Below, one piece after another: positions 26,187 to 41,119 of a DNA stretch of 41,119 nucleotides. The position numbers and the translations under genes were made by a program. Under the pieces are notes generated by a model that worked only from the letters and a program-made list of their open reading frames with translations, was not told where the DNA came from and made no database searches. Position 1 is the stretch's first letter; each line of letters opens with the position of its first letter. Source of the stretch: a virus (Duplodnaviria > Caudoviricetes); the IMG/VR virus record IMGVR_UViG_3300022719_000136, positions 1-41,119 of that record. One strand, written 5' to 3'.

Positions 26187-26474
26187 GTGGTCCGGGTAGC
26201 CGATAAGAAAGACGTCTGTGGCATCAGCAAGATTTGGGCGCTACCGGAGGACCACCCGTTTACCGACGTGTGCATTGCGCACGACAAAGCGTTTGTAAAA
26301 AAGAAGATTACCGGAGAGGGTTCTTTCGTAAAGGAGAATGTAAGGTTCTACAAAGGCATGGCCGCTATCGCCAGGAAAGAGAAGGGCTGGACCAGGGTGT
26401 GGCGCACTATCGAGGCCGTTGTGATGTACAACGTCGCCAACATCTTCGGTTACTACTTCTGGGTAAAGAAATAG
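26187..26474 (+). CDS. Phospholipase A2-like (CxxHD) small protein
   Basis: F..VCIAHD.AF...N.RFY..M...MY..A..FG pattern of prokaryotic PLA2/DUF1353-like proteins. Confidence 0.55.
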   Translation: MVRVADKKDVCGISKIWALPEDHPFTDVCIAHDKAFVKKKITGEGSFVKENVRFYKGMAAIARKEKGWTRVWRTIEAVVMYNVANIFGYYFWVKK

Positions 26475-26645
26475 ATATGAGACACGGCGCAGTGAGGACT
26501 TAAAGAGAGGTTAAGCGTGCGGCGCTAACTCTGCACAGCATCTCCTCCCTCCGGCTGAGATGTGTGCAAGGATGCACGTAACGGCTTTCGACCAAGGTTG
26601 TCGATGTAAGTCCGTGTCTCAGCTTTTAACATAAAAAGGAACCTG

Positions 26646-27905
26646 ATGAAGTTGCGACTACTATTCTGCACTATTCTCGTCCTGGCAGTCACGGGCTGCT
26701 CGCTTATCAAGGACCTCTTCGGAGATGACGACAAACCTTCTCCACCACCCCCAACCGCCGAGCTTCCCGCGATGGGCGCAGTTTGCCATGACTTTATTGG
26801 TTTATTGCATCCGCAGTTTCCCACGCCGCACGTAGCTGAGTTAATGCAAAAGCCGTTTTGCGGCTCTCATCTCGATTGGAGCTTTGGCAACGATACACAA
26901 AATCTAGAATTGCTTCTTAACACTGGCAAGGTCGCTGCTTGGCAAGTCGACCTATACAACGGTCCTTGCATCAATCCGTGGAATCAGAACTGTCAATCTT
27001 ATGAGCCGCATGCTGGACTTTCTCGTGACGCCTTTAATGCAAAGTGGGAGCGTGGAGGAGAAGAGCAAACAGGATGGTTTAGAAATAGAGTTCAAACTTA
27101 TTGCGACTTATTTAAACGTTATCCCGGCGTCGCTTTGCAAATCTCTCCAATCTTAGAGCACACACTTTCTCGCACTGCGTGGAACAACATGGCGGCTAAT
27201 GTCCGCGATGTCTGTCCCATGGCTGAACTAGTAAACAACAACGTGCAGGATCAATATTACCCAGATGTTCTAAACGAAACACACAACCGGCAGCACAATG
27301 CGCCGGTCGGCTCACTGTTTTCTTACGACGGTAACGAAGCAATGGACTCGAACGTCCCAGCCGAATACGCTCGGATGAAAGACCGGGTATCTAAATTCTA
27401 CGTATGGAGCTGGACGTATAACGGAAGATGCACGAATGGGGGCTTTGTTGATCCTCGCAACAGATCTCGATGGCCGAATAAAGCGATGCTTGCTGACTTG
27501 TTTAACGTCGGGAGGGTTGCTAGTGGGCAAGTTCAAGCTGGTCCCGCTCCCGCTACACCCCTTTCACCCCCAAGGCTCTGGAAGCCGTGGGCAGACGACC
27601 ACTGCGACGGAAACCCCAGGAACAACAAGCCGGTATACCTTACCACCTGGCGCGGAGGTCAGGTTGACATTCTCGGAGCCGACAAAGCAACAGTAATCAC
27701 GAGCCTCAAGTACGGCGGTCAGTTTAGTAACAATCAATCAATAGCACTATATCGGTCGGGAATCCCCGGAAGCACGAATCGGCACGGTAGCGAGATTGCT
27801 GATAAAGCAGTTGAGCTACTAGGTTCCCCTTGGGTATATTTACGCGAAGGAGCTACGGTTTTCGGGCCATTTCATCCGTCTATGCGGCAAGGGAGTTTTC
27901 GATAG
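26646..27905 (+). CDS. Large lipoprotein of unknown function
   Basis: Signal peptide with lipobox LAVTG-C, Pro linker, AAGGA RBS. Confidence 0.75.
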   Translation: MKLRLLFCTILVLAVTGCSLIKDLFGDDDKPSPPPPTAELPAMGAVCHDFIGLLHPQFPTPHVAELMQKPFCGSHLDWSFGNDTQNLELLLNTGKVAAWQVDLYNGPCINPWNQNCQSYEPHAGLSRDAFNAKWERGGEEQTGWFRNRVQTYCDLFKRYPGVALQISPILEHTLSRTAWNNMAANVRDVCPMAELVNNNVQDQYYPDVLNETHNRQHNAPVGSLFSYDGNEAMDSNVPAEYARMKDRVSKFYVWSWTYNGRCTNGGFVDPRNRSRWPNKAMLADLFNVGRVASGQVQAGPAPATPLSPPRLWKPWADDHCDGNPRNNKPVYLTTWRGGQVDILGADKATVITSLKYGGQFSNNQSIALYRSGIPGSTNRHGSEIADKAVELLGSPWVYLREGATVFGPFHPSMRQGSFR

Positions 27906-28007
27906 TGGGGCTTCTATCCATCGAGAACGGGCGTTTTAGATGACCCGAAACCCCTTGGCTATGCTAGGCTTCAACTGAGCAAAGAACCCTTTAGAGAGGA
28001 GAAGAAT

Positions 28008-28178
28008 ATGAAGGCTCTATTGATACTACTCTTGGCGGTGAGCTTTTCAGCTTGCAGCATCCTAGAAAGCGACACTCATTCTATCGATGATGTATTCACA
28101 GCTTGCAAGGCTGCAAAGGAGGTTGGCGAGCTAGCCATCGAAACTTGTAGTCAGCTAGGGGAACACCTCGGCCAGTAA
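28008..28178 (+). CDS. Small lipoprotein (56 aa), o-spanin candidate; not in ORF track
   Basis: GAGGAG RBS; MKALLILLLAVSFSA-C lipobox; two further Cys. Confidence 0.75.
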   Translation: MKALLILLLAVSFSACSILESDTHSIDDVFTACKAAKEVGELAIETCSQLGEHLGQ

Positions 28179-28182
28179 CCCA

Positions 28183-28428
28183 GTGACTTATTCGGACTTA
28201 ATGAAGAAGGTCGATATGGCAGATTCAAAACCATTAGTAAAATCCATAACTGTCAGCTCGGGCACCGCGATGTATGTCGGGCTGCTCATGTTGATTTTTC
28301 AACAGGCAGGCGTCCCGATACAGGAGGCGGTTGTTCAGGAAGGCTTTGAGGTCCTCGGGGCTACAGCGGCTTGGCTTATCAATCTGATCGGGCGAGCCAG
28401 GGCTAAAAAGTCTCTCCGACTGTTCTAG
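28183..28428 (+). CDS. Putative holin
   Basis: KPLVKSITV N-terminal motif, two hydrophobic segments, basic GRARAKK tail. Confidence 0.65.
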   Translation: MTYSDLMKKVDMADSKPLVKSITVSSGTAMYVGLLMLIFQQAGVPIQEAVVQEGFEVLGATAAWLINLIGRARAKKSLRLF

Positions 28429-28439
28429 CAGGCACATCC

Positions 28440-28910
28440 ATGCAGAAGGCGGTGGACCTGCTCCAAGAGGCCATGACGGCCCCTATCGTGACAGTAAACC
28501 CCGAGCCCTGCGTGGATGTCTTCCTTGGAGATTATCTCCCTCCAAGGCAGAGCGACGCTAAGAACTACCACACACGCGCACGGGCAAGGGAAGTTCAGTG
28601 GCTTCAACACGCCCTGGCCTACGCCACACCTGACTACAGGAAGATAACCCTGGAGGTGCCTAAGCTGGTCCTGGTGACGACTTGGAAGAATAGGAAGAGA
28701 ATGGACGAGGGAAACTTCGTCCAAGCCTGCAAGGCCCTCATAGACTCCCTGGTGGGCTGGTGCCTTAAGGATGACACAATCAAGTGGATTACCCCACGGT
28801 ATCGCCAGCTATCAGCCAGGGTGGAGAAGCACCAGATCGGGACTCGGGTTACAGTATTCTACGTTGTGTCGAAGCAGGACTGTGTTTCCCTCGTGAGACT
28901 ATCCTCTTAG
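28440..28910 (+). CDS. rusA: RusA-like Holliday junction resolvase
   Basis: RMDEGN....KALIDSL....LKDD catalytic pattern. Confidence 0.8.
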   Translation: MQKAVDLLQEAMTAPIVTVNPEPCVDVFLGDYLPPRQSDAKNYHTRARAREVQWLQHALAYATPDYRKITLEVPKLVLVTTWKNRKRMDEGNFVQACKALIDSLVGWCLKDDTIKWITPRYRQLSARVEKHQIGTRVTVFYVVSKQDCVSLVRLSS

Positions 28911-29226
28911 TTTCCTCATCAACATAGGCAAGAATCGATTTCCTGAAGCTTGAAGGTTCTCGGTCTATCGCGTTGGAGCACAGCTCGAAGCTGAAGGGGT
29001 GGTCCTGGTCCGTCGTGCAGAGCCACCGCTCAGCCAACGCACGGCGCTCAAGACAAACGATCTTATGCTTCTCTCCGCAGTATCGCATGGGCGGAATCAT
29101 GTCTCGCACGGCGCTTCTCAGGAGCGCTACGACCAAGTTCCTTTCTGGTGTGACGGGAGGTCCGTAGGAAACAGCCTCTAGCCCCCCTTCAAATAGCAAC
29201 TGGATGGGTTGTCTTATTATTGCCAT
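28849..29226 (-). CDS. Conserved helical hypothetical protein, possible regulator
   Basis: PERNL..ALL..A..D...AERW.....PFSF..C pattern. Confidence 0.6.
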   Translation of the reverse strand: MAIIRQPIQLLFEGGLEAVSYGPPVTPERNLVVALLRSAVRDMIPPMRYCGEKHKIVCLERRALAERWLCTTDQDHPFSFELCSNAIDREPSSFRKSILAYVDEETKRIVSRGKHSPASTQRRIL

Positions 29227-29329
29227 AGCCGTGCCTTCTTGGTAACTTACTCAGGTCAGACACGACGCTTACCCCCTGGGGCTTTGTTGGTTTCCTCCTG
29301 GGGGGTTTTTCAAATTAAGATACTCCCGA

Positions 29330-29701
29330 CTAGGAGGAAGATTCCCCTCCTCTTTTCTTTTTCCTTCTCACTTTCTTCTTTTTTCTCGGAGCCCTGCGGT
29401 AACGCTTGTTGCGCCTCTCTTCTTTTGCTGTTTCTGGATACATGAAGCCGAAAAGCTCATGCCATGCCTTAATCTCAGCCACAGCCGCGAGCAGTTTGTC
29501 GATGTCGCGCCACGAGACATTAAGATATTCCTCCATCACACCCCGAACGTCGATGGTCCTTCGTCGAATGCGGAACCTGACGCCCGGCCCAGATAGATTA
29601 GGCACCACCTCCATATACCAGCTATCGGTTTTTGAATTGCGCTTATGTTCCCACTGGTAGATACCTTCTCGCCAGTAGGGGTTCTTATCTCCGATGCTCA
29701 T
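29330..29701 (-). CDS. Hypothetical protein with very basic C-terminus
   Basis: Likely start MSIGDK at 29701, just after the RHH gene stop. Confidence 0.6.
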   Translation of the reverse strand: MSIGDKNPYWREGIYQWEHKRNSKTDSWYMEVVPNLSGPGVRFRIRRRTIDVRGVMEEYLNVSWRDIDKLLAAVAEIKAWHELFGFMYPETAKEERRNKRYRRAPRKKKKVRRKKKRGGESSS

Positions 29702-29708
29702 CAGGACT

Positions 29709-29888
29709 TTAAGAGCGCGGAGGAGGCGCGTTCTCTTGCTGATTCTTGTGATTCTTCGCGTAGCGCCAGAACATGCGTTGCCCAATCTCCTGCAACGTCT
29801 CGCCCCTCTCAAAGGCAGCTTTCTTTACGTCAAGCCACAACTCGCTAGAGAGCTTAATCGATATGCTTTTCGTCTCTCTCTCTTTCAC
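29709..29888 (-). CDS. Ribbon-helix-helix DNA-binding protein (59 aa); not in ORF track
   Basis: MKERETKSISIKLSSELWLDVKKAAFERGETLQEI...; GTGA coupling with the upstream gene. Confidence 0.7.
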   Translation of the reverse strand: MKERETKSISIKLSSELWLDVKKAAFERGETLQEIGQRMFWRYAKNHKNQQENAPPPRS

Positions 29889-30175
29889 GCCATCCCCTCC
29901 GAGTCCTTAAAACTCCCTAAAAACTGTCTCCACTGCCAATCCGGCACCGCGATAAACATCTGCTGACGCGGGGACCCCGAGCGACTCATGGGGTCATCGA
30001 GAAAGTAGTCAGCGCCGGAATCAACCAGGTGGTAAGTTTTCTCTTCGGGATGATAATCAAGTAGAACCCAGGTTTGGTCGGAGAACATTATCAGGAGAGT
30101 CTCGTGATGGAAGCCCCCCTCGTAGCTATCCGGCTTCTCCGTAGAAGTATCTAGTGTCTCTTTCTTTGCTCTCAT
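29885..30175 (-). CDS. Hypothetical protein
   Basis: GGAG RBS; 96 aa. Confidence 0.65.
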   Translation of the reverse strand: MRAKKETLDTSTEKPDSYEGGFHHETLLIMFSDQTWVLLDYHPEEKTYHLVDSGADYFLDDPMSRSGSPRQQMFIAVPDWQWRQFLGSFKDSEGMA

Positions 30176-30316
30176 ACCATCTCCAGTCGTCTATTTTTAC
30201 CGTAAGCCTACCTTGCACATCCATGACCTTTATCGAAGGCTTCTTGATGACCTCCAGGACTTCTTCGTGAGGTGCGTCCCGCTCCGTCTCGACGAACTTG
30301 TTAACGTATCGCCAAG

Positions 30317-30715
30317 TCAGCCGGGACGCCTAAAGCTGGTTTGGTTGATTTTTTTCGTCGTCGAATCAACACCGGCTCCTCCTGGTCCTGTGAACACGAA
30401 GTAGACTTCTCGTCCGCGCCGTTCTTTTCTTACGAGCCCCCGCTCAACTAGTTCGCTTGCAAACCTCGATACGCTTGTCCCACCTCTGTCCATGGCCTCA
30501 GCCACCTGCTTGGAGGACATTACTCGGTGTTCTCTAAGCAGCGCCAAGAAAAGCTCACTGGACTGTTTCCTGGTGCGTTGCTTGTAGCTGTTGCGCTTAC
30601 GCCTGCTGCGGCTCGGGGTTTTCGTTCCTGCCCGGATCTGCTCCCTCATCATCAGTCTCCTCACTCTGTCCTCGATTATGGGTATCCCCAGCCATGTCCG
30701 AACTATCTGACGCAT
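30317..30715 (-). CDS. Winged-HTH DNA-binding protein
   Basis: SSKQVAEAM....TSVSR...ELVERGLVRKERRGREVYF; AGGAGG RBS. Confidence 0.8.
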   Translation of the reverse strand: MRQIVRTWLGIPIIEDRVRRLMMREQIRAGTKTPSRSRRKRNSYKQRTRKQSSELFLALLREHRVMSSKQVAEAMDRGGTSVSRFASELVERGLVRKERRGREVYFVFTGPGGAGVDSTTKKINQTSFRRPG

Positions 30716-31049
30716 GTTGTTTTCCTCCTATTTTGTCTAGATAAAGATTAAAAGCTTCTTCGCTACCCTGGTGCCATGCCCTCAGTGCGCTGAAGACGGT
30801 GACTTGTAAAAGCCCGCTAATCACCTCCCCTAGCTCCCCTCGGAACAGAAAAATCTCCTCATCCGCGACGAAGGCCATCGTCGCAGCGGTATAGAGTCCT
30901 GCTAAGTCGTCAGAGAGGGAATTACCGGAGTTCGGCAGTTCCCCGCCCTTCTGTAGGGTGTCCTTAACCGTCAGGGAGATAAGCTTGGTTAGCGCCTCGG
31001 CTGGTTCCGTTGGTATTGTTAATTGAACTGGGTATTGCGTTTCGCTCAT
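30597..31049 (-). CDS. Hypothetical protein
   Basis: 150-aa ORF following recT. Confidence 0.6.
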   Translation of the reverse strand: MSETQYPVQLTIPTEPAEALTKLISLTVKDTLQKGGELPNSGNSLSDDLAGLYTAATMAFVADEEIFLFRGELGEVISGLLQVTVFSALRAWHQGSEEAFNLYLDKIGGKQHASDSSDMAGDTHNRGQSEETDDEGADPGRNENPEPQQA

Positions 31050-31066
31050 GCTGGCTCTTCTGTTGT

Positions 31067-32029
31067 TTAAAACTCTTCGTCGTTGTCGTAAACGCTATCG
31101 TCAAGCGGAGGCGGCCCCTCCATCTTCAGTTCCTCAGCCTGCTTCTTTAGTTCTTCTGCACGCTTCTTTTCTTTGGGCGTTGGCTCCTCTTTCGGGGGTG
31201 CTTTCTTGTCAGCCTCTCGCTCTACGAACTCGGGTATCTGCTCGTTCGGGACATTGATCTCAACGGCCTCGTTCCCTTCGATAAGAGCGTTCTCTCGTTC
31301 GTTTTGCGCGGACGTAAGCGCGTTAAGATCGAGCTTCCTCGTTACGCAGCGGTGAATAACTGTTTTGAGCCCGTATGGAATCCAGTTCTCATGCTCCGGC
31401 CCGGCTTTTTCCATCCCTCCGAACGGCCCGCTCTTTCCTTTAGGGGGAAAACGCTTTGCATGTGTCCAAACTTCATCGTTTGTCATTTGTTCGTGGTAGG
31501 TGTTTCCGAATCTGTCCTTAGCTATCATATAGAACCCGAGTAGACGCCCTCGACCCTGCCCCATTGAAGGAAGCTTATGGGTCACTTGAGGAGTATCACC
31601 TAGCGCAACCTCGTAGTGGTCGTTCTCGTGTATCTCGTGCGCGTTCGCGTAGGTGATCTTCGGGTCACGCCTGATGTTCTTTAACTCACCTTTGTAGCCG
31701 GTCATCAGCGTTGCCGTTGACCCGAACTTTACGACGTGGGCTTCGTTCTTAACGCCGAAGTCTAGCCCTAACTGAGCGGCTTGAATAAAGGCGTTCATTA
31801 ACGAGAGCGGGTCTGTTTTCATCACGGACCAAAGCTCGGGCTTCCCTCTCAGGTAGTAGTAAGCGCTAGTCTTAAACCCATCGACGCTCATGCCGGGAGG
31901 CAGGACAGTCGCCAAGCGAGGAGTCATATCCTCAAGCCCCTTGTTCGCGGTTGCGAGCAGGGACGCCGGAGTTGCTACACCGGAACTGTTCGCCACTTTC
32001 ATTGCTAACTCCTGGGTGTTCTTCGCCAT
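31067..32029 (-). CDS. recT: RecT-family single-strand annealing recombinase
   Basis: SLMNA..QAAQLGL, GYKG, and W...GLKTVIHR motifs; acidic tail; adjacent to YqaJ. Confidence 0.92.
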   Translation of the reverse strand: MAKNTQELAMKVANSSGVATPASLLATANKGLEDMTPRLATVLPPGMSVDGFKTSAYYYLRGKPELWSVMKTDPLSLMNAFIQAAQLGLDFGVKNEAHVVKFGSTATLMTGYKGELKNIRRDPKITYANAHEIHENDHYEVALGDTPQVTHKLPSMGQGRGRLLGFYMIAKDRFGNTYHEQMTNDEVWTHAKRFPPKGKSGPFGGMEKAGPEHENWIPYGLKTVIHRCVTRKLDLNALTSAQNERENALIEGNEAVEINVPNEQIPEFVEREADKKAPPKEEPTPKEKKRAEELKKQAEELKMEGPPPLDDSVYDNDEEF

Positions 32030-32031
32030 GA

Positions 32032-32940
32032 TTATTCCTCGCCTTTTGGAAACGTTACTCTGAACGGCCTGGTTAAAGTGGTTTTCTTCACTGTCTCGTA
32101 AATCTCGGGAAGCTCTTCCTTAAGCTGTTTGGCATCTACCGAGGTGCGGTTATACGCCTTCCAGGAAGCTCGGTAATCGTTACAGACGAGGTGCTCCGCG
32201 TCCTTCATTATCGCCTGAAGCTCAGCCCGAGCCTTCGCCTGCTTCTTACTCCAGTTATCAATCGCGTTTTTGGACTCTTCGAGAATTTCAAAGAGTTGGA
32301 GAATTTCAGGATCGCTCGTTACTACCTCCCACCCGTCCTGATGTGCCGGGTAGATCCTTTTTATGACGTTCACGTCGTTGGCGCTGATGTCGGGAGGCGT
32401 GTTGGTTTCGACTAGCTTCCAGAAGTCTTTAAGCTGCTCCGTAATCCCGTCTGCCAGCAGCTCGGAGAACTCAACTTCACGAAGCACAAACGAGTTGCCT
32501 CCAATAAGCCCTGCTACGTGTGCAGAATGAATCCCCGTCACGTTCATCTGATGGGTTGTCTGTATGTGCGCGTAGTCGGGAATAGCGCCATCTTCCCATT
32601 CCTTCTTCTTGAACCAGCTTGTGTTTTTGCACTCTAGGATAGAAGGCTTGTAGCTGAGGTAGTCGGGCGTGGCGGAAATGTATTCGGGTAGTTTGGGGTT
32701 TCTATATGACTCGTTGTTCTTCGTGTAGGGAACCCCGAGGTCCTGCATGGCTCGCTCGGCTATCACCGGCTCCAGTGCGTTCCCCCAGTAGGTAAACTCA
32801 TTCCCTTCAAACGGGGGCAGTAGTCCAACAAGCCTTGCCCACACCGCGTAGGGGGTGGAGTCATTGCCGAGCCCCATGCCTAAGATTGCAGGCACATCAC
32901 TTGAGCCTATCGTCCGTTGCCTGCCTCGTTCTTCGCTCAT
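32032..32940 (-). CDS. YqaJ-like exonuclease (RecE analogue)
   Basis: IGSSD...ILG, WG..LEP, ATPD, LECK and Q..HQM motifs; AGGAG RBS before ATG at 32940. Confidence 0.92.
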   Translation of the reverse strand: MSEERGRQRTIGSSDVPAILGMGLGNDSTPYAVWARLVGLLPPFEGNEFTYWGNALEPVIAERAMQDLGVPYTKNNESYRNPKLPEYISATPDYLSYKPSILECKNTSWFKKKEWEDGAIPDYAHIQTTHQMNVTGIHSAHVAGLIGGNSFVLREVEFSELLADGITEQLKDFWKLVETNTPPDISANDVNVIKRIYPAHQDGWEVVTSDPEILQLFEILEESKNAIDNWSKKQAKARAELQAIMKDAEHLVCNDYRASWKAYNRTSVDAKQLKEELPEIYETVKKTTLTRPFRVTFPKGEE

Positions 32941-32949
32941 TTCATCTCC

Positions 32950-33030
32950 TGTGGTCATGAAGTCATGCAATGCTAATGTCGTGACTACATGACTCCATGG
33001 CATCATGTCAATAAATTTATTTTTATTTCC
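32950..33030 (-). promoter_or_regulatory. Leftward promoter region for the recombination operon
   Basis: Perfect TTGACA at 33006-33011 on the minus strand with an AT-rich UP-like element; -10 unclear; clustered CATG motifs. Confidence 0.5.
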
Positions 33031-33099
33031 GTGCCTGCACACCGGGTTTCGGGATTCGGAAGAGCAACAAATACGGGTTAGCCCTTATAGGGTTTAGGA

Positions 33100-33128
33100 T
33101 TGCAAGGCTGCCTCTTCTGATTTATTCT
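33100..33128 (+). promoter_or_regulatory. Sigma70-like promoter for the replication operon
   Basis: TTGCAA-17 bp-TATTCT upstream of 33155. Confidence 0.6.
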
Positions 33129-33154
33129 AGTGCCTTAGAATTACCAGGGGGCAC

Positions 33155-33361
33155 ATGGGCAAACAATTATATTTAAGCAGGGATGAGTTAGCATCTACCC
33201 TATTAGTGAGTACTAGAAAGGTCGATGAGTGGGTTGCTAAGGGCCTGCCGCATATTCGGGACAACCGGATCGTGCGTTTCGACGCCGAGATGGTTGATAG
33301 GTGGCTCGTTGATACGTTTGGCGTGAACTACTCCAAGGCTGACCACGATGCCAGCCAGTAA
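33155..33361 (+). CDS. Excisionase/MerR-like HTH protein
   Basis: YLSRDELA..L.VS.RKV..W...GLP.IR....VRFD...V.RWL. Confidence 0.85.
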   Translation: MGKQLYLSRDELASTLLVSTRKVDEWVAKGLPHIRDNRIVRFDAEMVDRWLVDTFGVNYSKADHDASQ

Positions 33362-34241
33362 CGGCGGGTGGGTGAAAATTCACCGCTCAATGCTCAACTG
33401 GGAGTGGGTAAGCGAGCCGGATACCCTCTGTCTTTTCGTGCATCTTCTCCTGTTGGCTAACCACAAAAAGAGCCGCTGGAGGGGGGTTGAGGTCGAGCGG
33501 GGGCAATGCATAATCGGGCGAAAAAAACTCAGTAAGGCCACCGGCTTATCAGAGAGGAAAATTCGCACTTCGTTAAAGAGGCTAAAATCGACCAGCGAAA
33601 TAACCAGCAGATCGACCAACAGATTTACGCTGATAACTATTTGTAATTACGACAAATACCAGGTAACAGAAGACCAAGGCGACCAGCAGATCGACCAGCA
33701 GATCGACCAGCGATCGACCAGCGATCGACCACAAACAAGAAGGAAAGAAGATCAAGAAGATCATTTCGTAAGTACATCTAGTACCAACAGCGTACATAGA
33801 AAGGGGGGTACGGGGGGGGGACAACTCCCGAAGAAGAAGCCCCTTAATCCCCCCAACGGGAAAATAACTGATATTACTAATATGGAATTGCCTGGGGTCT
33901 TCAATGCCCCTCGTGCAAGGCAGGCGCTTCAGGAGTGGCTAGACTACAAGCGCGAGAAGCGGCAAACCTACACCCCTCGGGGCTTCAAAAAGCTCCTCAC
34001 CGAGAGGAAGGACTGGACGATCCAGGAGCTAGTCGACGGCGTGAACCATTCAATGGGATCGAACTACAGCGGGTTGTTTAAGAAGCGACCAGACGCAGGG
34101 CAGGGGGTCTACGTTAACGAGAGCGCCTACGAGCGCCAAATGCGCCAGGCTAAAGAGAGGTTTGTTAAACAACGACAGAAGGAGATCGAGGATGAGAACA
34201 AGAGGAGAGATACAGGGAATCTTATTGGGCCTGAAGGCTAG
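33348..34241 (+). CDS. Replication initiator (lambda O-like)
   Basis: GWVKIHRS...WEW, HLLL.ANH, RGQ, ITICNYDKYQ; C-terminal W.DYK.EK...NYSGLF; internal iterons. Confidence 0.88.
   Translation: MPASNGGWVKIHRSMLNWEWVSEPDTLCLFVHLLLLANHKKSRWRGVEVERGQCIIGRKKLSKATGLSERKIRTSLKRLKSTSEITSRSTNRFTLITICNYDKYQVTEDQGDQQIDQQIDQRSTSDRPQTRRKEDQEDHFVSTSSTNSVHRKGGTGGGQLPKKKPLNPPNGKITDITNMELPGVFNAPRARQALQEWLDYKREKRQTYTPRGFKKLLTERKDWTIQELVDGVNHSMGSNYSGLFKKRPDAGQGVYVNESAYERQMRQAKERFVKQRQKEIEDENKRRDTGNLIGPEG
33586..33731. repeat. Iteron array / probable replication origin
   Basis: Five tandem 11-12 bp (GAT)CGACCAGC-type units at 33680-33731 and degenerate copies at 33586-33624, followed by an A-rich stretch. Confidence 0.8.
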
Positions 34242-34851
34242 GTTTCAATACTTCCAGATTGACGACGCCACAGAACTTGTCTGGTGGCAGGACTTCAGGC
34301 ACGAATCCCTGAAGGACCTACAAGCCGCAGCGCATCACCTAACCGAGATGGAGATTACCGGAGCCCCTAATGCTGCCCTCTTCTCCCAAGCGCTAGACGC
34401 TATCCGGGCACGCCGTATGCTCACGGCCCCCACAGACAGCCGACCTCCTGCCACCAGGCAACAATACCCCGGCATGGAAACCTATGAGGTTAAGCGGTTT
34501 GTAGAAAAAAACAAGGGAGGCCGCATAGTTAAGGAGGAGGAGACTCGTCGCTACCTACGGGCGAACCACCCCCTTTTCGCAGAGATAGCAAAGCAGCGCA
34601 TTGCGGAGGGCTATTGTGTTGTAGCCGATGAGCCAGACGCCCAGGGAAGAATTTGCTGGGCCTGGAGAAAAAAAGAGGACTGCGTCAGGGTCGCTGGTTT
34701 CGTAACGCTCAAGGGCGTGAGACTCCCCCGATACCAACTAAAGGAATACACAGCGGTAGAACCGGGAAGTGGGGAGGCATCGGCCATGGTGGACTCTAGG
34801 CTCCCAGGCTCCCGTCAGACAGAGAAAAGAAGGGTTTGGGTGAAGGAGTAG
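34192..34851 (+). CDS. Putative helicase loader/inhibitor (G39P-like N-terminus)
   Basis: Follows the initiator; VWWQDF.......AA........PN pattern; AAGGAG RBS. Confidence 0.55.
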   Translation: MRTRGEIQGILLGLKARFQYFQIDDATELVWWQDFRHESLKDLQAAAHHLTEMEITGAPNAALFSQALDAIRARRMLTAPTDSRPPATRQQYPGMETYEVKRFVEKNKGGRIVKEEETRRYLRANHPLFAEIAKQRIAEGYCVVADEPDAQGRICWAWRKKEDCVRVAGFVTLKGVRLPRYQLKEYTAVEPGSGEASAMVDSRLPGSRQTEKRRVWVKE

Positions 34852-34900
34852 TCCCATGAGACAAACGTGCCGCTAAGAGGCACGCAGAGCCTCGTATAGC

Positions 34901-35230
34901 CTATCTACTATCCAGTTCCTCCGGCCAGCGCTCTTGAAACTTTTGGAGCATATGTGCCGCAAAGCCAAGCGCACACGGCTCTGCTAGTTCTACGCTGTGC
35001 TTTTTATCTATCTTCTGTATCTCCGCGCTAATCATTGCAATCACTTCCCGCAGCACCTTCCCGCGCTCGTCGGCGCGGATATCATCTGCATCATATTCGT
35101 AGCAATCTAGTTGTTCTTGCAGCTCCTTAATTTCTTTACTCGCAATGTCTCCCCATTCAATGCCGCAACTCACACAGTAACGATCATTTCCCGATCCGTT
35201 CCATCTATGATTGATCCCATCACATCCCAT
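34901..35230 (-). CDS. Hypothetical protein
   Basis: TAATG coupling; N-terminal C..H..CVSC. Confidence 0.65.
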   Translation of the reverse strand: MGCDGINHRWNGSGNDRYCVSCGIEWGDIASKEIKELQEQLDCYEYDADDIRADERGKVLREVIAMISAEIQKIDKKHSVELAEPCALGFAAHMLQKFQERWPEELDSR

Positions 35231-35436
35231 TACTCATCCCCGATCTCCTGTTCTCTCGTGCCCCACGGTTTTTGCTTTAAAATGTTTCGAGCTTGTTCCT
35301 CAGTATAATAATCCCCTTTAAACCAAACCCAGTCATTACCGGCACACGGACCCATCGACCAGCGCTCTTGCCATTCCCGCCAGTTGTTCATCACGGGGGC
35401 ATAATAACCATCTAGCCATTCTTCTTGCTCACTCAT
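35230..35436 (-). CDS. Hypothetical protein (Trp-rich)
   Basis: Tiling with AGGAG RBS. Confidence 0.65.
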   Translation of the reverse strand: MSEQEEWLDGYYAPVMNNWREWQERWSMGPCAGNDWVWFKGDYYTEEQARNILKQKPWGTREQEIGDE

Positions 35437-35641
35437 CCCCGATCTCCTTCGCGAACACTTTATTGAGCCACTGTGATAATTCTCTTATTTTTTCTACAGA
35501 GAGTAACGCTTCCATCTCATCATCTTCCTCAGGTCCTATCATCAGCACGACAGAAACAAGGCCGTCCCCACGAAACGTTATCGAGAGCCTTTCCCCCTCG
35601 TCGAAAAACTCGCTAAAGTTTCCTTCCTCCCACTCAATCAT
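35429..35641 (-). CDS. Hypothetical protein
   Basis: AAGGAG RBS; tiling. Confidence 0.7.
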   Translation of the reverse strand: MIEWEEGNFSEFFDEGERLSITFRGDGLVSVVLMIGPEEDDEMEALLSVEKIRELSQWLNKVFAKEIGDE

Positions 35642-35813
35642 TGTCGATCTCCTTCGCTTTGGCTAAGACTTCTGACAAAGTCCATTCTTTCCCGTCGCTG
35701 AATCCACTTCCGAATGAGTTGTAAAACTGCTTACGGTCTTCTCGCGCTTGCCGCTTTGCATCTTCATGCATCTCCTCCAACCACGTCACAAGTTCTTGCA
35801 AATCAGGGCTCAT
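35634..35813 (-). CDS. Hypothetical protein (59 aa, MSPDLQEL...); not in ORF track
   Basis: ATGA coupling; fills the gap exactly. Confidence 0.65.
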   Translation of the reverse strand: MSPDLQELVTWLEEMHEDAKRQAREDRKQFYNSFGSGFSDGKEWTLSEVLAKAKEIDND

Positions 35814-36334
35814 GCGTCACCACCGCTCAAATAATACATCAACCGTTCTTGTTGCCATTTGCGTTCCGCATCCCAAGTCGCATCCCAAGCCGCAGCCCAA
35901 GCCGCAGCCCAAGCCGTAGCTAATTCGTGTTCAGTTATTTCCCCGCGAGCGAACTTTCTCGTAGCGTCAATGTAGTCACGAATACTCCTGTCGTTCGGAT
36001 ATTTTGCCTCGTAAAAATGTAACACCCGCTCGGCACAATCAGCAGCAAATAGACGAGCGGTTTTATCATTCCAGATTTCAACGTGCCTAACTAGCCGCAT
36101 CTCTTGCGCGCAGTTTTTATTATCCCCGTGCAGTACGTCACCTCGCACCTCTACTTCGTAGAGCTCATCGCTTAGCCAGTCCAGCAATTGAGATTCGGTC
36201 ACATAATGGTAGCCAGCACTGCACAGCTCCAGCTTCTCGATTTTCGGCATCCACTCACCAAGCGGATAAATGAAGTCACGCACGCAGACAGACTGACAGT
36301 TTGTTCGTGTGAATTTATAAAGCGTTTTACTCAT
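35810..36334 (-). CDS. Imm5-like helical protein with AAAW repeats
   Basis: LC.AG.H N-domain; FAADCAERVL..YE..YPND..IR...FARGEIT; 12-bp repeats at about 35866-35917. Confidence 0.7.
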   Translation of the reverse strand: MSKTLYKFTRTNCQSVCVRDFIYPLGEWMPKIEKLELCSAGYHYVTESQLLDWLSDELYEVEVRGDVLHGDNKNCAQEMRLVRHVEIWNDKTARLFAADCAERVLHFYEAKYPNDRSIRDYIDATRKFARGEITEHELATAWAAAWAAAWDATWDAERKWQQERLMYYLSGGDA

Positions 36335-36521
36335 CAGTCGTTCCTCGTTCCTCACCCGACACCTGAAACACAGCGACAATCGTAGAGAGGATTAGGATTA
36401 GCCCTTGGGTCAGGATCGGCACCCAGATGGGAGCCAGTACCCAGAACCAAGAGATGTGAATAACGTTTTCATCCTTAGCGATAGCCAGAACGATTGTTAA
36501 CAGAACCAGTGAGGTTGCCAT
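36327..36521 (-). CDS. Small membrane protein
   Basis: Two hydrophobic segments; I.ISWFWVLAPIW.P motif; GGAGG RBS. Confidence 0.75.
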   Translation of the reverse strand: MATSLVLLTIVLAIAKDENVIHISWFWVLAPIWVPILTQGLILILSTIVAVFQVSGEERGTTDE

Positions 36522-36544
36522 GTTGTTTCCTCCGTCTTCTAGGC

Positions 36545-36907
36545 TTAGCCAATCGCCTCGCCCACCTCTTTGTAATTGCCCTCATGCATCGTCTTGCCGC
36601 GACTCAGGTAGATGCTCCAGCCTTCAGCCGGGTCCGTCTGGTGAAACAGCTCAAGGCCATTGAGAGACGCCACCTCCCCCGCCTCGTCCTGAAGCCTGGC
36701 AATCTTGATGGCTGTCAACTCCTGGACCTTGGCACAATACCCCTGGTATGCCCCCCAGGACTCCGTTCGGAACTTCTTTCTGTCAGTCCCGTTACATTGA
36801 GTCTCGTAAAGTTGGTTCAGCTCTCTCGACATTTTTATGAATTTGTTCAGGAGGCCAGGGGAAATCCCCAGCTCCTCCCTCACCCTTCGCTTCTCTTGCA
36901 TCATCAT
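36545..36907 (-). CDS. Hypothetical protein
   Basis: GGAGG RBS; ...E.QCNG and HQTDP..GW..Y segments. Confidence 0.7.
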   Translation of the reverse strand: MMMQEKRRVREELGISPGLLNKFIKMSRELNQLYETQCNGTDRKKFRTESWGAYQGYCAKVQELTAIKIARLQDEAGEVASLNGLELFHQTDPAEGWSIYLSRGKTMHEGNYKEVGEAIG

Positions 36908-37009
36908 GTTGCTAAGTTCCTCCCGGCCCTTCTGTGTTGCTAAGTTGCTAAATTACCCCTTGCGGGGGGAGCCAGGGAAGTTGCTAAGTTCAACCCCATC
37001 CCTGGCTCC
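36908..37009 (-). promoter_or_regulatory. Structured leader with AACTTAGCAAC repeats
   Basis: Three exact 11-mers plus one variant; 11-bp inverted repeat at 36968-36978/36999-37009; GCAA tetraloop hairpin. Confidence 0.6.
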
Positions 37010-37025
37010 AGCCAATTTAGGAGAT

Positions 37026-37058
37026 AAAAAGGGGGACGGTCCCGAAGGACCGCACCCG
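37026..37058 (-). terminator. Rho-independent terminator downstream of the Ubl gene
   Basis: CGGTCC-TTCG-GGACCG stem with cUUCGg loop and extension, followed by T5 on the minus strand. Confidence 0.8.
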
Positions 37059-37154
37059 TGTAAGCTCCTCTAAATACTAAATAAAACCGCTACCCAAAAC
37101 CAGGTGACTGCTAGTATCACAACGCTAGCTAGCAGCGCCTTTATCGTCTCCACG

Positions 37155-37361
37155 TTAAACCGCCGATCCGGTGGCTTTAGCGAGGATAATAGTGTCGTTT
37201 TCCTCGATGCTATCACCGGGCTCCGCCGATCGGTTATTCAACCTGATCGCATGTCCCGACACGCTGTAGCCAGCAGATTCGACCGCTTCTTTGACCGTAG
37301 ATCCATCAGTTTCCACGGTAATTGTCTTGTCATTTGGGATAATCACCAAATATACACGCAT
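37155..37361 (-). CDS. Ubiquitin-like beta-grasp protein (ThiS/MoaD-like, 68 aa)
   Basis: AAGGAG RBS; beta-beta-STVKEAVESAG helix-IRLNN...IEENDTIIL-AKATGSAV; adjacent to E2/JAB/E1 genes. Confidence 0.8.
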   Translation of the reverse strand: MRVYLVIIPNDKTITVETDGSTVKEAVESAGYSVSGHAIRLNNRSAEPGDSIEENDTIILAKATGSAV

Positions 37362-37409
37362 GATGTTACTCCTTTTCCTTGGCTTATGATCAGCACCATT
37401 GCCGACCAC

Positions 37410-37534
37410 CTAAAGCCACAATACACGAAAAAAAATAAAAAGAAAAGAAAAAGATAACTTTTATAAAAAATAAAATAAGTGTAGACTATAGATATGGTGC
37501 GGTAGACCGCGTTTAGCAAAACAGGAGAAAAACA
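37410..37534. promoter_or_regulatory. A-tract-rich divergent promoter region
   Basis: Long A-tracts; GTAGAC twice; small palindrome GCGGT-AG-ACCGC; ACAGGAG RBS. Confidence 0.55.
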
Positions 37535-38893
37535 ATGGAATCAGCACAACAAGTATCGAGAGAGACAGGGACAAAATATTGGTTGAATCGGTGCGATTTA
37601 GAGGAGAAAGGAATTGCTTTGCCGCAACGCTATATGAATTTTGATCTCTGTGACACAGCGGGCGTCATTGTCGAGTCGATCGACTGGTTACCGGCTGGCG
37701 GACGCTTGCAAGATAAGCGACAAGAGTCGATCGGCGAGATCGCTATATATCAAGCAAGCATGCCGCTTCGCGAGCTTAGCTTGTACAGCGAGGCCCGAGC
37801 GTTGCTTGTTAAAGCGGGGTACGCAAAGATCGACTCTTTATGCTCGCACACAAGCGACAGGGCCGAGAACAGAACGCGTTTGTTTGCCCGTGTTGCGTAT
37901 CTGTATCCGCTGCTCGATGATGAAAACACGCTAACAGTCCCAGTGATGCTACAAAATGAGGTAGTCACAGAGGTGCCCAAGGAGTCACTCAAGGGTGACG
38001 GGCTGCCGCGAATAAAGCTTTGCTTAGCGCAAGATAATGACATCGCGAACAGTGCTATTTGTCTAGCTTTTCTGCGAGATCACGCACTGAGCGACGAGAT
38101 AAGAAAGGAGGCTAGCGATCTGCTCAGCGAACTAGCGTTAGAATATCGCACAAATCAGATTGAGCAGTTTCGACGCTTATCCGACTATCGTCGTCGCTCG
38201 GATCTCGAAAAAGCACGATCTAACTATAGATCGTATTGTGAGCAGCTGCAGGATATAACGTCGCAGCTTAGAGATGTTCACATCGCAAAACTCAGAGAGG
38301 CGGATAATATTATTAGCCTGGAAAAAGCGATTGAACAGCGAGCTAAGGACGAAGAGCCAGCAAAAGCGCTTGCAAAGCTTGAAAGCCTTGAGGGGATTAA
38401 GCGAGTCGACGTTCTGCGAGACACGATTTTATTGACGACTGAGCATATACGGATCCGAGAGCATCGAAGCGGGAGGCTGTATGATGTTGGAGTTTTTGAG
38501 ATTTCAGTCGCTCAGCATCGGCGCGGCGCCGATGCGATTCTGTTCGCCAATAAGACGCGCAAGGTTTGCGGACACGGTCCTGACATGCACCATCCACATA
38601 TTTTTGATCGCGGCGATGCGTGCTTTGGCGATGAGCTTGGGGAGATGATTGCAAAAGTGCACGCTCGGTCCGATTATTTTCAGCTCGCCGTTTTACTTCT
38701 GCAATTTCTGCAATCGGTTAACGTGTTAGACATTGCGGGGCGAAAGATCTACGCATGGCCGCGAATCGACGAAGAGAGCGGCAAGCTTGTCAAGTCAGAC
38801 GGAGTAGATCCGTTGGACGATAGAGAGGAAGAGGAAGAGGAAGAGGAAGAGGATTTTGAAGATTGCGACGAGCCCGAATTTGACGACGATTAG
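37535..38893 (+). CDS. Coiled-coil plus E2 (UBC-like) conjugating protein with acidic tail
   Basis: HPHIFDRGDACFG (Cys363) matches the E2 HP(N/H)I...G..C active-site pattern; G.F.I.V strands precede it and an LLLQFL..VN helix follows; operon context. Confidence 0.75.
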   Translation: MESAQQVSRETGTKYWLNRCDLEEKGIALPQRYMNFDLCDTAGVIVESIDWLPAGGRLQDKRQESIGEIAIYQASMPLRELSLYSEARALLVKAGYAKIDSLCSHTSDRAENRTRLFARVAYLYPLLDDENTLTVPVMLQNEVVTEVPKESLKGDGLPRIKLCLAQDNDIANSAICLAFLRDHALSDEIRKEASDLLSELALEYRTNQIEQFRRLSDYRRRSDLEKARSNYRSYCEQLQDITSQLRDVHIAKLREADNIISLEKAIEQRAKDEEPAKALAKLESLEGIKRVDVLRDTILLTTEHIRIREHRSGRLYDVGVFEISVAQHRRGADAILFANKTRKVCGHGPDMHHPHIFDRGDACFGDELGEMIAKVHARSDYFQLAVLLLQFLQSVNVLDIAGRKIYAWPRIDEESGKLVKSDGVDPLDDREEEEEEEEEDFEDCDEPEFDDD

Positions 38894-38925
38894 TTTCGAA
38901 AACAACAAAAACAGGAGAAAATAAC

Positions 38926-39684
38926 ATGAGCAAGACAGTTAGATTTACGCGTGATTACGAGGTATTGATTGAGCCAATAGCGATGCTTAAGCAGCGTTAT
39001 ATCGTGGCGCAATCGAGCGCCGAAGTGGCTTGGCTAGGTGAAGTTGAGCGACATGGTGACACGTTTATCATCACCGATATTCACATCCCGGTTCAGTCTG
39101 TGAGCAGCACAACGGTCAATCTAACAAGTGAAGAGACGATGCAAGCTTACACAGAGTTGATGGCCCAGGGCATCGGCTTAGAGCGTTTGAGATATCACGG
39201 ACATTCCCACGTAAATATGAGAGTCAATCCGAGCGCGGTGGATCAGGATTATTTAAGGGAGGTTGAAGAGTCCGGCGTCGATTGGTTTGTACGTGCGATA
39301 CTCAACAAAAAAGATGAGCTTCGTGTCGATCTGTGTCTTTTTGCCGAGGGGATCGTGATTGAGGATATCGGATGTGCTGTTAATGAGGGGCTTGAGGAGT
39401 CAGTTGCTAATGAGCTTAGTCAACAGCTTAAAGAGCGTGTCACAGTCGAGACGATCCCGCTGTATAGCTATGGGCTCAATGGTCGGGGAAAAGCAGGCTC
39501 GCACTACTTGAGCGAGCATCGCGCTAATCAAGAAATGCAGCCGAAGAAAAAGCGTAAAGATCAAAAGGCACCCGCAAGCGCTCAGGAAGTTGCAGCGCTC
39601 CGGTTTGCTCCTGATCTTTGGGACGACGATGAGGAGTATTTAGCTGAGCATTGGCCGCTAGTGTCAGATCCGCAAGGAGATTAG
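38926..39684 (+). CDS. JAB/MPN+ metallopeptidase (Ubl-processing/deconjugating)
   Basis: Exact JAMM motif E33...H93-S-H95-x7-S103-x2-D106. Confidence 0.92.
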   Translation: MSKTVRFTRDYEVLIEPIAMLKQRYIVAQSSAEVAWLGEVERHGDTFIITDIHIPVQSVSSTTVNLTSEETMQAYTELMAQGIGLERLRYHGHSHVNMRVNPSAVDQDYLREVEESGVDWFVRAILNKKDELRVDLCLFAEGIVIEDIGCAVNEGLEESVANELSQQLKERVTVETIPLYSYGLNGRGKAGSHYLSEHRANQEMQPKKKRKDQKAPASAQEVAALRFAPDLWDDDEEYLAEHWPLVSDPQGD

Positions 39685-39686
39685 TC

Positions 39687-40388
39687 ATGGATTTATCAAA
39701 GCACTTACGCATCTTTAACCCCGCGGATCGCGATCTTATGTATCACGTTGTGGGTTGTGGTTCGGTCGGGTCAAAAGTCGCCATAGCGTTAGCGCGGCTC
39801 GGTTGTAAACGCCTCACGTTATGGGATTTCGATCAAGTTGAGGAACGGAACATTCCGAATCAGGCGTTTTTTCCGCCACAAACCGGCGAACCTAAAGTTG
39901 AGGCGCTAAGGAAGTTGCTAGAGGGGATAAATCCTCAGATATCGACGACGCTCGAAGCAAAAGGGTTTTTGTCGACTCAGCACGATCTTAGCTCGTCGGG
40001 TAACTATGTTGTGTTCGCTTGTGTCGATTCGATGCGGGTCCGCAAGGAGATATTCGAGCAAGCTCGCAAGCACTTAGCATGTCGGGTGCTCGTCGAGGGC
40101 AGGCAAGGGATTTCCGATGGCAGAGTTTACACGCTCAAGCCGATCGATGCGGATCAAGCCGAGCTGTACGCGGAAACGCTATATTCCGACGAGCTTGTTA
40201 AGCAGACCGGTGAGCAGGATGCGTGCGGTTTTATGCCAAGCGTCGGTGTGACGTCTGATTTTACATCGTCTTTGATGGTGTCGCAGTTTATCAACTGGCA
40301 CAGAGGCAAACAGCCAGCACACGAGGTTATCTATAATCTGACGCCGCTCGGGTTGTATCATCGCACCTGGGGTGAGGATTACGAGTAG
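39687..40388 (+). CDS. ThiF/MoeB/E1-family Ubl-activating enzyme
   Basis: GCGSVGS, DFDQVEERNIPNQ, KVEAL, CVDS..R; candidate catalytic Cys180 in DACG; AAGGAG RBS before ATG at 39687. Confidence 0.93.
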   Translation: MDLSKHLRIFNPADRDLMYHVVGCGSVGSKVAIALARLGCKRLTLWDFDQVEERNIPNQAFFPPQTGEPKVEALRKLLEGINPQISTTLEAKGFLSTQHDLSSSGNYVVFACVDSMRVRKEIFEQARKHLACRVLVEGRQGISDGRVYTLKPIDADQAELYAETLYSDELVKQTGEQDACGFMPSVGVTSDFTSSLMVSQFINWHRGKQPAHEVIYNLTPLGLYHRTWGEDYE

Positions 40389-40474
40389 TGAGCGATGGGA
40401 CCGGGTTAAACCATAGAGCGTATCAACTGCGAGGAAAAACGGATCAACGCGGCTATTCCCCGGCTCCGGGGTTG

Positions 40475-40663
40475 TTACGTTCCCTTCTCCTTCGAGTCGA
40501 TAATTTTTTTAACAGCCCGCTCCCAAAACTCCTGAATTGAGACTTCTCCTAGCGCGGCTGCTAAGTCCAGATAAGTCTCTTCCCCCAAACGCACCGTGAT
40601 CTTTCTGTGCTCATTGGGGATCCAGCGCGGATCCCCTTTTTTGCCTCGCCTGCTAGTTTTCAT
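40475..40663 (-). CDS. Ribbon-helix-helix DNA-binding protein
   Basis: RKITVRL.EE.Y.DL......SIQEF.ERAV pattern. Confidence 0.65.
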   Translation of the reverse strand: MKTSRRGKKGDPRWIPNEHRKITVRLGEETYLDLAAALGEVSIQEFWERAVKKIIDSKEKGT

Positions 40664-41078
40664 TTGTTTTCATCGTCTTTTTATTTTTTAACTCAATTTT
40701 CTGCGCTTCTTTTTCCAAATGCAGCGCATACGCCGCGGCGTCTTGTGGCGTATGTGCCCACTCCCAGCGCAGCGGATTGACTGCACGCAATGCGGCGCAC
40801 GCGGCGCTCCAGACTGCTTGTTGCGCCGCATGAGATTTACTATACTTTTCCGCACCCGCCGCATTGCGCACAGTCTGGATGCTCTTCCACCTTTGCCTCG
40901 CAGCTTCCGCGATATCGCTTAATTCGGCTCGCGTGATATGACCCCCCGCAAACTGTTTTACTGCGTCAAGACACTCTCTAATGCTGTTGTCGTCATAGAG
41001 AGTTTCGTATGATCGCAAGACGCCCTCGGCGTGTTTGACGTCAGCAAGTATCTCTTCTGTCGAGTGTTCATTTTTCAT
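40653..41078 (-). CDS. Imm5-like helical protein (paralog of 35810-36334 C-terminal half)
   Basis: HAEGVL.SYE.LY.D.SIR.C.DA...FA.G.IT..EL aligns with the other copy. Confidence 0.7.
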   Translation of the reverse strand: MKNEHSTEEILADVKHAEGVLRSYETLYDDNSIRECLDAVKQFAGGHITRAELSDIAEAARQRWKSIQTVRNAAGAEKYSKSHAAQQAVWSAACAALRAVNPLRWEWAHTPQDAAAYALHLEKEAQKIELKNKKTMKTNEN

Positions 41079-41119
41079 TTTTCATTTTTCATTTTTTCGT
41101 CTCCTTATCGGCTGCTAGT
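40968..41119. repeat. Terminal direct repeat, right copy
   Basis: Matches 1-145 with one extra CATTTTT unit. Confidence 0.95.

Follow-up and report, generated by a model that had tools for sequence, protein, structure and literature searches.

A four-gene ubiquitin-like set in a 41-kb phage that likely tags proteins of the infected cell

Introduction

Among described bacterial gene sets with ubiquitin-like protein (Ubl) chemistry, those closest to the phage locus studied here are Bil, Bub, type II cyclic-oligonucleotide-based antiphage signalling systems (CBASS) and operon class 6d, which we take to be the PRTRC cassette. The locus consists of four genes, for a Ubl, an E2-like conjugating protein, a JAB/JAMM metalloprotease and an E1 activating enzyme, within positions 37155..40388 of IMG/VR virus record IMGVR_UViG_3300022719_000136; the whole record, positions 1-41,119, is called the window below. 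We conclude that this four-part system is the phage's own and likely attaches the Ubl as a covalent tag to proteins of the infected cell, its purpose being most likely an early lytic modification of host proteins. We put the probability of this reading at roughly 0.6.

A thioester relay to protein targets has been shown for Bil, which has the four components Ubl, E2, JAB and E1 (PMC10557695; 10.1101/2023.09.04.556158). Its E1, BilD, has an IAD-AAD-CYS architecture (PMC11601596; PMC10557695; 10.1101/2023.09.04.556158), and the terminal glycine of its Ubl, BilA, is fully conserved and essential, glycine being stated as the obligatory terminal residue of the Ubl (10.1101/2023.09.04.556158). The Ubls of class 6d also end in a conserved glycine, and their operons carry a gene for an alpha-helical partner (PMC1779556). 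Bub (6E/DUF6527) has an E1 and an E2 without catalytic cysteines, forms oxyesters on tyrosine and serine, and features fused proteins and a DUF6527 protease (PMC11601596). In type II CBASS, Cap2 is an E2-E1 fusion that acts on the CD-NTase (PMC10557695; PMC11601603). Across this literature, Ubl conjugation in bacteria is shown for host-encoded systems only (PMC11601596, PMC11601603, PMC10557695, 10.1101/2023.09.04.556158).

The enzymes of the cassette

A preliminary description of this DNA, made from the sequence alone, had named the four genes. All four open reading frames (ORFs) are present in the span it gave, and its residue numbers for the catalytic positions (C180, C363, E33 and H93) are correct. 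The E1 gene (39687-40388, plus strand) encodes a minimal, ThiF-sized protein of 233 residues with a single adenylation domain (Pfam ThiF, E 3.4e-22). It has a glycine-rich ATP loop, the residues D47, D49, N55, Q59, K70 and D114, and a single cysteine, Cys180. The ATP-site residues and Cys180 are invariant in 28/28 aligned family members, among which no CxxC zinc site was found.

The JAB gene (38926-39684, plus strand) encodes 252 residues with the pattern E33 ... H93-x-H95 ... S103-x-x-D106. Each of the five is conserved in 90% or more of the 21 sequences aligned. With the family profile, Rpn11 is detected at E 1.4e-7, and 7 of the 21 family members match Prok-JAB at E<=0.05. Judged by sequence, the protein is an Rpn11-like JAMM protease; its motif is complete, as first read. 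In one relative (L088, 6537-7683) the JAB gene is present as two ORFs about 250 nucleotides (nt) apart, possibly split by an insertion or intron.

The E2-like protein (37535-38893, plus strand; 452 residues) is identified by motif conservation and predicted structure. It comprises a lineage-specific N-terminal region (about residues 1-186), an 85-residue helix (residues 188-272), a UBC-fold domain (about residues 275-415) and an acidic tail. Its active-site motif, H353-P354-H355...C363, has the P-x...C spacing of the HPN...C motif in classical E2s. No family match was found in Pfam, PHROG or PADLOC and nothing meaningful in NCBIfam; against Prok-E2_D, an Atlas cluster is reached at a template-modelling (TM) score of 0.36, again with no Pfam or NCBIfam match. 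A phmmer search over 1.84 billion representatives returned 1,142 proteins at E<=0.001, the query included. In the best 149 relatives, which phmmer selected for likeness to the query, P354, C363, D399 and G402 are each kept in 149/149 and H355 in 148/149.

The preliminary description had allowed that the 452-residue protein might lack a UBC fold. Residues 187-420 were modelled with AlphaFold on an alignment of 125 sequences; the model has a predicted local distance difference test (pLDDT) score of 95.5 and shows the 85-residue helix followed by a compact domain; a single-sequence fold was poor (pLDDT 50) and was discarded. Foldseek with this model returned nothing at E<=0.001 (best E 0.012), and its top rows were E2 enzymes. 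Re-aligned to the Foldseek candidates, human and yeast E2s, the model gave Z scores of 6.7-7.4 and root-mean-square deviations of 3.2-4.4 Å over about 110-120 residues; 49 of the 50 listed re-aligned rows were E2s and the remaining one was the Knl1 RWD domain. The UBC fold is defined by a meander of four strands, helices on either side and a cysteine in the active site; the model matches E2s at a Z score of about 7, which is moderate but consistent evidence for this fold. A wide structural search was filled by coiled-coil matches from the long helix, the UBC domain not being probed; a PDB profile search with the E2 alignment gave coiled-coil matches only, and a BFVD structure search gave two uncharacterised phage proteins at E<=0.001. 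In the relatives, the stretches that score best include next to nothing of residues 1-186, from which we infer that this region is lineage-specific; it may bind targets.

In many cassettes of large phages (L086, L089-L096) the E2 gene has a diverged paralogue next to it. The copy in L092 keeps P-H-V without the cysteine, and the motif is missing in six others inspected. The second paralogue is possibly an inactive UEV-like partner.

The Ubl and its C-terminal end

The Ubl gene (37155-37361, minus strand) encodes a 68-residue beta-grasp protein of the ThiS/SAMP type, with an ATG start and an AGGAG ribosome site upstream; an alternative GTG start at 37409 would give an 84-residue form and was judged less likely. 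Pfam gives weak matches only. The Atlas structure model aligns to a ThiS-family viral cluster at TM 0.84, in agreement with the beta-grasp pattern seen earlier.

The protein ends K62-A-T-G65-S66-A67-V68, so its terminal residue is not glycine. When it is aligned with 12 relatives, Ser66 occupies the terminal column and Ala-Val extend beyond it. We predict that the C-terminus is trimmed before activation. By the alignment the new terminal residue would be Ser66, a count from the last strand favours Ala67, and Gly65 is also a candidate; the end that the window tag uses is probably not the usual glycine.

Ends other than glycine prevail in the family. Among 75 distinct Ubl-domain matches, 70 had readable ends (61 by pattern, 9 by eye) and 5 were truncated or spurious. 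The last two residues are Asn-Ala in 39, Gly-Asn in 23, Gly-Ala in 4, Ser-Ala in 2, Ser-Asn in 1 and Gly-Gly in 1. A terminal in-register glycine is thus present in 1/70, and 69/70 end in another residue; a stop codon directly follows the tag end in 28 of the 61 pattern-read Ubls. Neither of the last two positions is a glycine in 42/70, so in that branch at least, a glycine at the end cannot be what activation requires, provided that these Ubls are activated. Such ends challenge the statement that the terminal glycine is obligatory (10.1101/2023.09.04.556158). Three relatives carry tandem two- and three-copy Ubl precursors with K-G-N or K-G-A junctions, resembling polyubiquitin (L007, 6734-7402; L088, 8387-8800; L099, 2037-2462).

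The Ubl gene is divergent from E2, JAB and E1, which lie on the opposite strand. Because it also has its own ribosome site and terminator-like hairpin, the cassette is not a single operon. This hairpin with a T run (37036-37053, minus strand) lies about 100 nt downstream of the Ubl; its support is positional only, because the region has 7 such hairpins where chance would give 5.2. The divergent intergenic region between Ubl and E2 (37362-37534) is A-rich, and the leftward gene that starts at 683 is preceded by a similar A-rich tract and AACAGGAG leader; the leader is common to E2, JAB and that gene. No sigma-70 consensus was found between Ubl and E2, and no sigma-70 promoter above chance in the region; no RNA data set was listed as a carrier of the sequence. 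The four genes adjoin as the preliminary description had it, but it mentioned neither the divergent Ubl nor the missing terminal glycine. The ORFs of the window cassette include no fifth gene.

Comparison with described systems

Bil types I and II share with the window set a Ubl, an E2, a JAB and an E1, the lack of an E3, the gene order of most of its relatives, and catalytic cysteines in E1 and E2. They differ in three respects. BilD is multi-domain and zinc-binding, whereas the window E1 is one 233-residue domain without IAD, CYS or CxxC; BilA ends in glycine, whereas the window Ubl ends G-S-A-V and its family mostly in Asn or Ala; and Bil is host-encoded and anti-phage, its Ubl being conjugated to a phage tail protein, whereas the window set is phage-encoded. 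The gene content agrees with Bil, but an E1 without IAD and CYS and a Ubl without the conserved terminal glycine led us to reject membership. The likeness to Bil first proposed stands for the gene content and is not supported beyond it.

Going by sequence, the closest layout of the E1 and E2 active sites is that of the PRTRC/6d class, whose profiles the window kit fails. Both sets have a stand-alone Ubl, a JAB, an E2-like protein and a minimal E1 on a mobile replicon; in both, an acidic loop of the E1 is followed by a single cysteine. The active-site loop of the window E2 has the P-x-hydrophobic...G-x-x-C-x-G spacing of PRTRC protein B. In contrast, the window E1 scores 35.4 bits against TIGR03736 (PRTRC), for which the cut-off is 144.75 (the E1 of relative L104 scores 24.3), and the E2, JAB and Ubl profiles of the window family miss PRTRC B, A and C (E 0.06 or worse). 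Aligned to protein B with hhalign, the family E2 gives a probability of 7.5% over 16 columns, which cover the active-site loop alone. The window kit has no alpha-helical partner gene, ParB or terminal Ubl glycine, and its E2 has the long helix. PRTRC/6d membership was rejected on the sub-cut-off E1, the Ubl end and the missing partner gene.

Bub resembles the window set in its Ubl, E1, E2 and JAB functions and in having a Ubl precursor that is processed by JAB. The window proteins, however, are separate, both the E1 and the E2 cysteine are invariant, and no DUF6527 match was found in the window scans. The two cysteines and the missing DUF6527 rule against Bub membership. A Bub-type operon on the Rhizobium plasmid NZ_CP032687 (L162, 2784-5181), with a multiubiquitin Ubl, an E2-like gene, a JAB-E1 fusion and a downstream small protein, served as an outgroup only.

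Type II CBASS Cap2/Cap3 offers a homodimeric ThiF-like E1 with E2 and JAB, and a substrate other than canonical ubiquitin. In the window, by contrast, E1 and E2 are separate and no ORF matches a CD-NTase, on which grounds we set CBASS membership aside. The E1-E2 models of PADLOC match just the generic ATP-binding part of the window E1.

A family across phages and bacterial contigs

The shared gene order that the preliminary description had proposed to look for in viral databases is widespread. Our 96 viral loci comprise 80 kept of 224 found by E1 and 16 found by E2; they are redundant, the 80 E1-found loci falling into about 11 groups at 80% identity and L007 and L097 lying on the same contig. 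Within this redundant set, the four genes occur together in 90/96 loci and in the order Ubl-E2-JAB-E1 in 75/96. They also occur together in 44 of 59 genome loci. Most of these are gut Bacillota bins with a cassette of the gut-phage type; the others are contigs of Patescibacteria and, in a few cases, of different origin. An E2 with the invariant cysteine stands beside E1 wherever the contig is long enough.

An E1 search of phage records matched 76/50,697, and four of the matching records were examined. The gut phage record MT835544 has Ubl-E2-JAB-E1, and Flavobacterium phage FpV4 and crAss-like phage Bcn22 have all four genes within the replication block; Xanthomonas phage PhiXhv-12 has Ubl, E2 and E1, with no JAB seen within the 10 kb examined. 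GenBank labels E1 relatives, including those of cultured crAss-like phages, as 'thiamine biosynthesis protein'. When 47 representative E1s are placed in a tree, those from Patescibacteria are nested among viral ones, and the window E1 is poorly placed on a long branch (1.37), with at most 39% identity to any other. Of 101 neighbouring ORFs at 17 loci, those with matches are mostly replication, recombination or housekeeping genes.

Judging from these relatives, the four-gene kit is one member of a large unnamed family and no rarity of the window phage. Specific to the window copy are the small genome, the divergent Ubl and the G-S-A-V end; it demonstrates that a genome of 41 kb has room for the kit and that the genes can be divided between two divergent units. 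We found no description of a phage-encoded Ubl/E1/E2/JAB set in the accessible parts of the literature, including PMC7824862, PMC7886860 and PMC10028833, a scope that leaves subscription journals and supplementary operon tables as places where phage members could be listed.

Full cassettes in housekeeping surroundings are present on bacterial contigs, both Patescibacteria (L104, L105, L107, L129, L151, L160) and others (L106, L110). Two bacterial-contig cassettes are preceded by a divergent TrmB-type regulator, and several Ubls are fused to C-terminal extensions. In the gut-phage branch (L002, L006, L008, L014 and related loci), a reverse transcriptase gene lies just downstream of E1, with RVT_1 in 3/3 tested. 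In L092 (1981-2823), the cassette is preceded at a distance of about 2-3 kb by an anti-Pycsar Apyc1 homologue and an RlaP nucleotidyltransferase.

The phage genome and its assembly

IMG/VR labels the record linear and 44% complete. We doubt this label because the first 122 nt (1-122) recur exactly at 40968-41089, which points to a genome that is complete as a circle of about 40,967 nt; a TTTTCA-type short repeat follows each 122-nt copy and differs by one unit between the record ends. Family scans identified a T7-type terminase, an SU10-like portal and adaptor, an N4-gp56-type capsid and an internal virion protein, together with an SLT lysin, RecE/RecT and a DnaD-like initiator, and by this gene set the phage is podovirus-like. 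As noted earlier, the window appears to have neither an integrase gene nor genes for thiamine, molybdopterin or tRNA thiolation: scans of its ORFs (55 against PHROGs, 55 against Pfam) found none. The nearest is a weak excisionase-like helix-turn-helix (HTH) match at 33155-33361. Single-protein searches found no close relative by terminase or capsid in the viral collection, none for E2 or Ubl, and none in viral contigs for E1 alone.

The cassette lies about 3 kb from the initiator gene and about 4 kb from RecE/RecT. The composition of E2-JAB-E1 is unlike that of the rest of the genome (observed/expected CpG 1.34 vs 0.97; GATC 2.42 vs 0.72), with a step at about 37.5 kb, so these genes were probably acquired from another replicon. 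Contigs of sequencing run X1, possibly the source sample and hence not independent, tile 26000-41096 and overlap across the junctions at an even depth of 6.5-9.4. One of them, 5,183 nt long, runs from the replication genes through the Ubl into the beginning of E2. Run X2 gave short pieces from both sides of the cassette junction. A chimera with host DNA, which the preliminary description had kept in view, is unlikely; the X1 contigs, possibly from the source sample, show no sign of one.

Proposed mechanism, purpose and alternatives

What the analysis shows is the folds, the intact and invariant catalytic residues and the co-occurrence of the four genes. The reaction scheme below is inferred from Bil and general E1/E2 chemistry, and so, independently of Bil, are the place of the cut, the substrate and the role. 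The JAMM protease would trim 1-3 residues off the Ubl end. The E1, a probable homodimer like ThiF/MoeB, would adenylate the new end and take the Ubl as a thioester on Cys180, and the tag would then be handed to Cys363 of the E2. With no E3, target choice would fall to the E2 itself, by means of the variable N-terminal part and the long helix, as would the final transfer of the tag onto an amine; JAB could reverse the tagging. The purpose would be an early lytic-phase change of host proteins, either takeover or the disarming of defence. We favour host proteins as targets on account of the gene neighbourhood: in phages the set is found among small accessory or replication genes, and in the window phage no integrase was found.

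Several observations weigh against this proposal. A Ubl on the strand opposite the enzymes was seen in 0/155 other loci (96 viral and 59 genome), and the divergent Ubl has no close relative, so its pairing with the window E1 relies on position and the family pattern. The structural match of the E2 is moderate, with a Z score of about 7 against the tool's caution line of 8 and Foldseek E values of 0.012 or more, and the E2 calls in FpV4 and Bcn22 come from motif and position, the window-family E2 profile reaching E 0.08-0.09 only. The E1 lacks the arginine of the NLxRQ motif and has an invariant Asn58 (28 aligned) at the position of MoeB's arginine. Finally, the copies on Patescibacteria contigs sit among housekeeping genes, so the module does not depend on a lytic lifestyle.

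If our reading is right, a phage-owned cascade puts Ubl conjugation chemistry on the attacker's side, and the 'thiamine biosynthesis protein' genes of cultured crAss-like phages need re-annotation. A wider version, which we offer tentatively and at somewhat less than even odds, is that phages from 41-kb podoviruses to crAss-like and jumbo phages may run their own E1-E2 Ubl cascade on host proteins. It would use non-glycine tag ends (Ser, Ala, Asn) and a coiled-coil E2 that doubles as target selector, and would form a widespread viral class apart from Bil, Bub and PRTRC.

The same chemistry could instead be aimed at other phages, as a Bil-like anti-competitor or superinfection weapon that phages carry and hosts sometimes keep. 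The component list is Bil's, as is the Ubl-E2-JAB-E1 order of 75/96 viral loci; Patescibacteria and other bacterial-contig copies are nested among viral E1s in the tree, and the foreign composition of E2-JAB-E1 would be expected of accessory cargo. We nevertheless consider such a weapon unlikely, since no integrase was found in the window genome scans and the genes lie inside the replication block in the crAss-like and FpV4 phages. Moreover, 0/101 neighbours have a Pfam match to a recognised host defence protein, save generic AAA models and untyped reverse transcriptases, one of the 101 is the anti-Pycsar homologue, and PADLOC gave just a generic E1 and a weak JAB match.

Improbable, too, is a reversible switch in which the tag is placed on the phage's own replication or assembly proteins. 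Cassettes often lie beside primase, helicase, SbcCD-like, SSB or RNR genes, the window cassette is similarly near the initiator and RecE/RecT, and plasmid PRTRC cassettes adjoin ParB, SSB or replication genes. A location among early or replication genes, however, is equally expected of host-takeover genes, and the cassette occurs in unrelated phage groups that have different replication sets.

There is little chance that the Ubl is a sulfur carrier, thiocarboxylated like ThiS or MoaD and serving thiolation with no protein tagged. Its ThiS-like fold and the ThiF-sized E1 recall ThiS-ThiF and MoaD-MoeB, the E1 scores best against ThiF/MoeB models, and GenBank names the relatives for thiamine biosynthesis. 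Yet none of these scores comes near its curated cut-off (83.7 against 159 bits in one case), most Ubl ends, the window's included, are not Gly-Gly, and the window set has a JAB and, like its relatives on contigs long enough, an invariant-cysteine E2. No linked sulfur-transfer or biosynthesis gene was found in the window scans, and sulfur-relay genes number 0 among the 101 neighbouring ORFs of the 17 loci. Thiamine biosynthesis was rejected.

It is highly improbable that the window copy is a mere remnant, be it rearranged, mis-assembled or without function, whose Ubl is non-cognate: its unique divergent Ubl, the composition step, the long E1 branch and a record made of a single contig would fit, but the four open frames with intact catalytic residues, the Ubl's ribosome site and terminator-like hairpin, and the X1 contigs joining replication genes, Ubl and E2 start argue otherwise.

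Neighbouring genes and minor observations

The left neighbour of the cassette (35810-36379, minus strand) has Imm5-like and DUF7666 domains in Pfam. The right neighbour (40653-41078, minus strand; 141 residues) has no Pfam match and resembles the left product by eye. The 80 nt upstream of the leftward gene at 36907 contain three copies of the nonamer GTTGCTAAG (36908, 36936 and 36980), and a fourth copy, at 33233, lies inside the HTH gene 33155-33361; the nonamer is possibly an operator. Near the lysis genes, a 419-residue protein (26646-27905, plus strand) with no family match has a lipoprotein-like signal peptide.

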